Source: Escherichia coli
Lineage (GTDB): Bacteria; Pseudomonadota; Gammaproteobacteria; Enterobacterales; Enterobacteriaceae
Assembly (NCBI RefSeq): GCF_044324785.1
Contig: NZ_CP172127.1
Direction: 5' to 3' (one strand)
Length of the DNA stretch: 64,000 nt
In this document: in pieces, positions 9,758 to 11,167 of the stretch
Position numbering within the stretch: position 1 is the stretch's first letter
Layout: each line of letters starts with the position of its first letter
Notes under the pieces: generated by a model
Database searches by the model: none
The model's input: the letters and a program-made list of their open reading frames with translations, nothing else
What the model was told of the DNA's origin: nothing
Made by a program: the position numbers and the translations under genes

Positions 9758-11167
9758 ATGACAAGTATTCAACAACGAGCAGAACTGCACCGCCAGATAT
9801 GGCAAATTGCCAATGATGTCAGAGGTTCTGTTGACGGATGGGATTTTAAGCAATACGTTCTGGGCGCGCTTTTCTACCGTTTTATCAGCGAAAATTTTTC
9901 CAGCTATATTGAAGCCGGTGATGACAGTATCTGTTATGCGAAACTGGATGACAGCGTAATTACTGATGACATTAAAGACGATGCCATCAAAACTAAAGGC
10001 TACTTCATCTACCCAAGTCAGCTTTTCTGCAACGTAGCTGCGAAAGCAAATACCAATGACAGACTGAATGCAGATTTAAACAGTATCTTCGTTGCTATCG
10101 AAAGTTCTGCTTACGGTTACCCTTCAGAAGCTGACATCAAAGGTTTGTTTGCTGATTTCGATACCACCAGTAACCGCCTGGGTAACACCGTTAAGGATAA
10201 AAATGCCCGCCTGGCTGCGGTTCTGAAAGGGGTTGAAGGGTTAAAACTTGGTGACTTCAACGAACATCAGATTGACCTGTTCGGCGATGCCTATGAGTTC
10301 CTGATTTCTAACTATGCGGCGAATGCTGGTAAGTCAGGCGGCGAGTTTTTTACACCGCAGCATGTCTCTAAGCTGATTGCACAACTGGCTATGCACGGGC
10401 AGACCCACGTTAACAAAATCTACGACCCAGCCGCAGGTTCCGGTTCGCTGTTGTTACAGGCGAAAAAGCAGTTTGATGACCATATCATCGAAGAAGGCTT
10501 TTTTGGTCAGGAGATCAACCATACGACCTATAACCTGGCGCGTATGAACATGTTTTTGCACAACATCAACTACGACAAGTTTGATATCAAGCTGGGCAAT
10601 ACGCTGACTGAGCCGCACTTCAGAGATGAAAAACCGTTTGATGCCATCGTTTCTAACCCGCCGTATTCAGTGAAATGGATTGGCAGCGATGACCCGACGC
10701 TGATTAACGATGAGCGTTTTGCCCCGGCTGGCGTCCTGGCCCCCAAATCAAAAGCTGACTTCGCGTTTGTATTACATGCGCTGAACTATCTTTCGGCCAA
10801 AGGTCGCGCCGCGATTGTCTGCTTCCCGGGTATTTTTTACCGTGGCGGCGCAGAGCAGAAAATCCGTCAGTATCTGGTCGATAATAACTATGTCGAAACC
10901 GTGATTTCACTGGCACCGAACCTGTTCTTTGGCACCACCATTGCCGTAAACATTCTGGTGCTGTCTAAACATAAAACGGATACCAAAGTTCAGTTTATTG
11001 ACGCCAGCGAACTGTTCAAAAAAGAGACTAACAACAATATCCTGACCGATGCCCATATCGAACAGATTATGCAGGTATTTGCCAGCAAGGAAGATGTTGC
11101 TCATCTGGCGAAATCTGTTGCGTTTGAGACTGTTGTCGCGAATGACTATAACGGCTTTGTTGAATAA
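9758..11167 (+). CDS. hsdM: Type I restriction-modification DNA methyltransferase subunit HsdM, 3' end replaced by IS903 inverted repeat (probably truncated; no hsdS/hsdR follow)
   Basis: N6-adenine MTase motifs ([26 protein letters not shown]); last 4 codons and stop (GFVE*) are encoded by the IS903 terminal inverted repeat starting at 11153. Confidence 0.8.

Follow-up and report, generated by a model that had tools for sequence, protein, structure and literature searches.

An IS903B-truncated hsdM gene as the probable remnant of a type IC restriction-modification operon on a CP4-44-like island of Escherichia coli

The open reading frame at positions 9758-11167 (plus strand) of the 64-kb window, i.e. 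the whole stretch of Escherichia coli DNA analysed here, is very probably (roughly 90 %) a non-functional remnant of a type IC, EcoR124I-like hsdM-hsdS-hsdR operon, which was carried as cargo by a CP4-44-like genomic island and eroded in two IS-associated steps. The frame runs from ATG to TAA and encodes 469 amino acids. Its larger part (9758..11152, plus strand) corresponds to codons 1-465 of the 518-codon gene of a type IC (EcoR124I-like) M subunit with the reading frame intact, and its 3' end originates from an insertion sequence.

The identity of the gene product was established by profile searches and by comparison with characterised proteins. Pfam HsdM_N is matched at residues 10-157 (E=8e-17) and N6_Mtase at residues 171-465 (E=1.4e-116), and the NCBIfam equivalog TIGR00497 hsdM is hit over profile positions 1-480 of 515 with 616 bits (E=4e-185; cut-off 242.75 bits). 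These family matches are far beyond chance; the PADLOC models for type I methyltransferases also hit the ORF. The AdoMet motif DPAAGSG is located at residues 223-229 and the catalytic motif NPPY at residues 300-303 of the 469-aa product. Residues 1-465 show two differences to the EcoR124II M protein (PDB 7BST). Over 1395 nt the window copy contains no internal stop and is 100 % identical to the allele of strain SMS-3-5, regarded here as parental. This parental allele matches the EcoR124II M protein with 1153 bits, 3 of the 517 aligned residues being different, compared to 67 bits for EcoKI HsdM. By homology, the ORF is assigned as a type IC (EcoR124I) hsdM and not as a member of types IA, IB, ID or IE.

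The intergenic region upstream of hsdM (9534..9757, plus strand) contains an AGGA ribosome-binding site about 10 nt before the ATG. A consensus promoter and terminator scan of 9450-11300 revealed no strong sigma-70 site upstream of hsdM, the counts being no different from those in shuffled sequence. The upstream region is identical over 300 bp to that of the intact hsdMSR operon in strain Ec-FL1-1X, and thus whatever promoter drives the intact operon is retained. With the frame undamaged up to codon 465 and the upstream region intact, the truncated protein may well be made.

Directly at the end of the hsdM fragment a complete insertion sequence of 1057 bp is found (11153..12209, minus strand). 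Both 18-bp terminal inverted repeats GGCTTTGTTGAATAAATC are exact, the single DDE transposase ORF (11209-12177, minus strand; DDE_Tnp_1_5 and DDE_Tnp_1 domains) is intact, and the sequence is 100 % identical to copies named 'IS5-like element IS903B family transposase' by PGAP. With its length of ~1057 bp, the 18-bp repeats and one DDE ORF, the element is IS903B (IS5 family, IS903 group). The hsdM frame runs into its left inverted repeat as GGC TTT GTT GAA TAA, so that codons 466-469 (GFVE) and the stop codon are IS-encoded (11153..11167, plus strand). On the other side of the element, the last 10 codons and the stop codon of a family 2 glycosyltransferase (GT2) gene (12179..13339, minus strand) lie inside the right inverted repeat, and judged by its sequence this gene is likewise IS-truncated. 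No 9-bp target-site duplication flanks IS903B (GACTATAAC on the left compared to GTTACCCGC on the right). A simple insertion would be expected to leave such a duplication, an adjacent deletion or a recombination between two IS copies would not. Simple insertion of IS903B into hsdM could be ruled out, since the duplication is missing and the 3' end of hsdM does not continue across the IS.

In an intact operon, hsdS overlaps the stop codon of hsdM, and hsdS is the next gene at most of the type IC hsdM-like matches in E. coli; in the window IS903B stands in this place instead. Searches of the 64-kb window by tblastn with the halves of type IC HsdS (best E=0.29) and with the 1038-aa HsdR (best E=1.5) returned neither subunit, and the PGAP annotation of the colinear regions of strains CREC-2 and SMS-3-5 lists no S or R subunit. 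All components of a working type IC system, namely a full-length M subunit, hsdS and hsdR, are missing from the window locus. These findings agree with the preliminary description, in which the ORF was read as a bona fide HsdM with N6-adenine motifs, followed by no hsdS or hsdR and ending in IS-derived sequence. Alignment to full-length HsdM, which was proposed there as a check, revealed that residues 466-518, i.e. the last 53 codons, are absent relative to the intact 518-aa protein.

The first ~32 kb of the window constitute a genomic island between tRNA-Ser (serW, next to infA) and clpA. Its backbone is CP4-44-like and comprises genes for DUF4942, the CbtA/YeeU toxin-antitoxin pair, an antirestriction-family protein, DUF932, Ag43 and a YeeP-like GTPase. 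The latter gene (8622..9533, minus strand) is conserved in all related islands, and hsdM follows directly after it. In the distal part of the island (~23900-32100), IS remnants (ISL3, IS66), a frameshifted gene with the primase domain of TOTE conflict systems, an inovirus-type Gp2 gene and a DUF3987 gene are present, all named after the annotation of the colinear CREC-2 region. A tyrosine integrase, likewise named after this annotation, adjoins clpA, at the island end far from the tRNA-Ser gene. The island part at 1-11152 is 99.98 % identical to SMS-3-5, unlike the core-genome part at 32443-63997, which is only 96-98.7 % identical to CREC-2 and has its best match in strain N3 at 99.5 %. This discrepancy suggests that distinct lineages of E. 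coli share the island by horizontal transfer. Within the core-genome part, a 2.5-kb insert (53640-56196) between ybjQ and ybjP was observed, which CREC-2 lacks but about 1,122 of 5,426 genomes contain. The insert encodes a 599-aa protein (53796-55598, minus strand), in which pentapeptide repeats at the C-terminus follow an uncharacterised N-terminal part. This protein gave no PADLOC match, the weak similarity to the Hailong effector HalA being below threshold (24 bits compared to a cut-off of 250).

Comparison with related strains revealed the intact form of the locus as well as several damaged ones. In Ec-FL1-1X, the same backbone proteins (identical WP accessions) are present and an intact hsdM-hsdS-hsdR operon is found right after the GTPase gene. 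Its hsdM encodes 518 aa and has 99.2 % nucleotide identity to the window copy, its hsdS encodes 418 aa (Methylase_S) and its hsdR 1038 aa (HSDR_N, SWI2_SNF2, EcoR124_C). The gene order is the same in SWYHX138, where an IS5-family element interrupts hsdS. A form without hsdS and hsdR, in which IS1 abuts codon 517 of hsdM, occurs in SMS-3-5 and about 39 complete genomes. The IS1 junction lies after GAGGTGCAG, where intact alleles read CAG AAA TGA overlapping the start of hsdS. The IS1B copy of SMS-3-5 (L001 13810-14576, outside the window) is not flanked by a target-site duplication either (GAGGTGCAG compared to CAAAAATAC). The loss of hsdS and hsdR is thus attributed to an IS1-associated deletion or replacement rather than to a simple insertion.

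From 11153 onwards, the window is 100 % identical to the IS903B-GT2 segment of SMS-3-5. The sole difference between both arrangements is a stretch of 8,985 bp (L001 13654-22638) missing in the window, which in SMS-3-5 holds the 3' end of hsdM, IS1B, two polysaccharide genes and IS debris. The right junction, at which IS903B meets GTTACCCGC of the GT2 gene, is exactly identical in 44 of 5,426 complete E. coli chromosomes. In contrast to this fixed end, at least nine different left junctions were found among the twelve loci examined, with no duplication at any of them. They are located inside IS1 (CREC-2), just beyond IS1 (GDSC2239PM), in the backbone DUF5983 gene (strain 162.2), inside hsdM at nt 373 (W444), nt 1029 (WCHEC050613) and nt 1395 (window), and at three other places. 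The three end points within hsdM are found on three different allele backgrounds and hence arose independently. Depending on the strain, the hsdM locus is cut at nt 373, 1029, 1395 or 1551, or wholly deleted, and the shorter equivalents are already flagged by PGAP as incomplete pseudogenes. Characteristically, IS-promoted adjacent deletion leaves one IS end fixed and no duplication, the end points being scattered on one side only, and the series of junctions fits repeated one-sided deletions by IS903B. Adjacent deletions are described as common for IS903 in PMC11708052.

Differences between the hsdM alleles are mostly synonymous and occur in tracts, e.g. at nt 528-1272 in GDSC2239PM and at nt 1230-1518 in Ec-FL1-1X. 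Such clustered tracts fit recombination among type IC alleles, and no conclusion about purifying selection on the orphan copies was drawn from them.

The junction between hsdM and IS903B could also be an artefact of the assembly, in which two copies of IS903B were collapsed or mis-joined, so that hsdM would truly continue, possibly into hsdS and hsdR. The exact junction of hsdM nt 1395 with IS903B was found in one piece in none of the 5,426 complete RefSeq E. coli genomes, many E. coli carry several copies of IS903B, and the missing target-site duplication would be compatible with a mis-join as well. However, several genomes that were finished independently contain analogous junctions at other end points, with IS903B and its right flank unchanged, and deletions of this kind are hence real and recurrent. 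Additionally, the IS is complete and the sequence colinear on both sides over 64 kb. A mis-join would also not restore a complete system, since the identical SMS-3-5 allele ends at IS1 without hsdS and hsdR in about 39 complete genomes, which renders intact copies of these genes just beyond a mis-assembled junction unlikely. Overall, we regard an assembly artefact as highly improbable.

Erosion of a complete operon in two steps remains the preferred explanation, and we infer the order and mechanism of the two deletions from the strain comparison. In the ancestral state, an intact hsdMSR operon would have resided on a CP4-44-like island inserted between tRNA-Ser (serW) and clpA. In a first, IS1-associated rearrangement, hsdS and hsdR would then have been lost and IS1 would have come to lie behind codon 517 of hsdM, resulting in an arrangement with polysaccharide-synthesis genes and IS debris in their place. 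In a second step, the IS903B copy at the 3' end of the GT2 gene would have lost the DNA on its left side, in total 8,985 bp, either by adjacent deletion or by recombination with a second copy of IS903B, both routes giving the same product. As a result, the last 53 codons of hsdM would have disappeared and codon 465 would have been fused to the inverted repeat of the IS.

The GT2 gene belongs to an ABC-transporter-dependent polysaccharide cluster (12179-~22400, minus strand) with a low G+C content of 0.35-0.46, which is situated on the serW island and thus outside the usual O-antigen locus of E. coli. On the minus strand it comprises a permease, an RfbB/Wzt-like ATPase, a DUF4422 (WbbM-like) gene at 16667-18559, glf at 15494-16648, a WbbN-like gene at 14607-15497, a GT4 WbbO-like gene at 13461-14606 and GT2 at 12179-13339. 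We take this gene order to resemble that of the Klebsiella O2a galactan-I locus (see also PMC11294581). The junction of IS903B and GT2 (window 12179-12209; loci L010-L015) occurs at four or more chromosomal sites, namely between serW and clpA, at the tRNA-Ser gene next to ghrA, near dsdC and near lpxP/ypdI, from which it follows that the polysaccharide module moves as a unit, often beside IS1. On three plasmids (H220-H222) no IS adjoins the GT2 gene, whose true 3' end may be preserved there.

For the function of the gene product, the nature of the lost C-terminus is decisive. The N6_Mtase match ends at residue 465 in the window copy (profile position 296 of 311) compared to residue 479 in the intact protein (position 310 of 311). 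An AlphaFold2 single-sequence model of the intact 518-aa HsdM was poor (mean pLDDT 37.8), and its sole confident element is a helix at residues 483-512. EcoKI HsdM lacking about 43 C-terminal residues was reported to be stable and folded, yet unable to bind M1S1 (PMC2647291), and removal of the C-terminal tails from the M subunits of PacII abolished assembly (PMC9613975). The four-helix bundle formed by the HsdM tails together with the HsdS coiled coil is regarded as a general anchor of type I methyltransferases (PMC9613975), and DNA recognition in type I enzymes resides in HsdS (PMC2878639, PMC3874165). If made, the 469-aa product keeps the N-terminal and the catalytic domain and may therefore fold and bind AdoMet. 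We infer that it cannot assemble into M2S1, recognise DNA or methylate it. With the HsdS-anchoring tail lost, a type IC HsdS provided in trans should not rescue the window HsdM or lead to methylation; the tail requirement was shown for EcoKI (type IA) and PacII and is carried over to EcoR124I by homology.

The preliminary description had left the choice between a decaying restriction-modification remnant and a solitary methyltransferase. The former interpretation is strengthened by the intact hsdMSR at the same island position and by the loss of hsdS, hsdR and the last 53 codons in the window, whereas the latter is weakened by the loss of the HsdS-binding tail. In its functional form, a solitary M subunit would have to use a type IC HsdS encoded by a plasmid or another island, resulting in host methylation or in a hybrid restriction-modification enzyme. 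Such a supply is conceivable, as type I families are defined by complementation and their subunits are exchangeable within a family (PMC3874165). Moreover, type IC hsdM-like genes are very common: 1,555 of the 5,426 complete E. coli genomes contain matches, which occupy 1,029 chromosomal and 733 plasmid-borne places, and a second copy is present in some of the strains with the orphan allele. In addition, neither the catalytic motifs nor the upstream region is damaged. These points are opposed by the absence of 53 C-terminal residues, among them the tail that binds HsdS and the final 14 positions of the N6_Mtase profile, and by the behaviour of EcoKI and PacII, in which HsdM without its tail does not assemble. 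A co-resident intact type IC system would, furthermore, bring its own full-length HsdM. Solitary methyltransferases such as Dam and CcrM possess their own target-recognition domain and would be expected to stay intact across the lineages that carry them. The window product contains HsdM_N and N6_Mtase only, and in sister strains the locus is cut at nt 373 or 1029 or deleted, so that it is evidently not maintained. A functional solitary subunit is accordingly considered very unlikely.

A third explanation would not require any catalytic activity. The tail-less 469-aa HsdM might be kept as an interfering fragment which titrates HsdR or full-length HsdM of type IC systems via the interfaces of its N-terminal and catalytic domains, thus acting in an anti-restriction or dominant-negative manner. 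The reading frame is undisturbed over 465 codons, the upstream region has been retained, a tail-less HsdM would be stable and folded by analogy with EcoKI, and a gene of the antirestriction family is located on the same island. If this is true, the fragment would weaken restriction by type IC systems that enter the cell or already reside in it, with a plasmid-permissive effect; EcoR124I-type enzymes, which would be its targets, are common on E. coli plasmids. However, no sign of selection is apparent, as the fragment is identical to the parent allele and simply young. The scattered end points elsewhere (nt 373, nt 1029, complete loss) are those expected for neutral erosion, and a role of this kind is not described in the literature searched. 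Of all explanations weighed here, we consider this one the least probable, with hardly any likelihood left to it.

As a non-functional remnant, the locus is properly labelled as an hsdM pseudogene, C-terminally truncated by IS903B, and not as an active methyltransferase, and no type I methylation motif is to be expected from it. It matters little beyond correct annotation. It provides a natural example of the stepwise erosion of an island-borne defence system by insertion sequences, which serves as an illustration and introduces no new principle.

Among the known systems, the HsdM of EcoR124I/EcoR124II, the type IC prototype (PDB 7BST, 7BTO-7BTR), shares the HsdM_N and N6_Mtase architecture and the motifs with the window copy. 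Compared to this protein, the window copy lacks residues 466-518, ends in four IS-encoded residues and is not accompanied by hsdS and hsdR. R124 is an IncFIV plasmid, whereas the window gene is chromosomal and located in a tRNA-Ser island. By descent, the window hsdM is a member of type IC, and it is almost certainly inactive.

The closest relative is the orphan hsdM::IS1 allele of SMS-3-5 (WP_000200811.1, 523 aa), which is identical over nt 1-1395, resides in the same island with the same left neighbours and likewise lacks hsdS and hsdR. It has lost just the last of the 518 codons and still possesses the tail, which is followed by six IS1-encoded residues, whereas the window has lost a further 156 nt of hsdM together with IS1 and about 8.8 kb more to IS903B. 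The intact hsdMSR of Ec-FL1-1X (also SWYHX138) occupies the same position after the YeeP-like GTPase and has both hsdS and hsdR, of which the window holds neither.

The adjacent deletions of IS903 (Weinert, Schaus and Grindley 1983, cited in PMC11708052) correspond to the window in that the IS is kept, one flank is lost and no target-site duplication is present. A further parallel is the series of different end points from a fixed IS end, which is seen in the related strains. Unlike in that case, the mechanism in the window is deduced from sequence comparison, and the product would be no different if a second copy of IS903B had inserted and then undergone homologous recombination. Taken together, the locus is a truncated copy of a well-studied type I gene, cut by well-known IS behaviour, and thus belongs to an already known kind of rearrangement.
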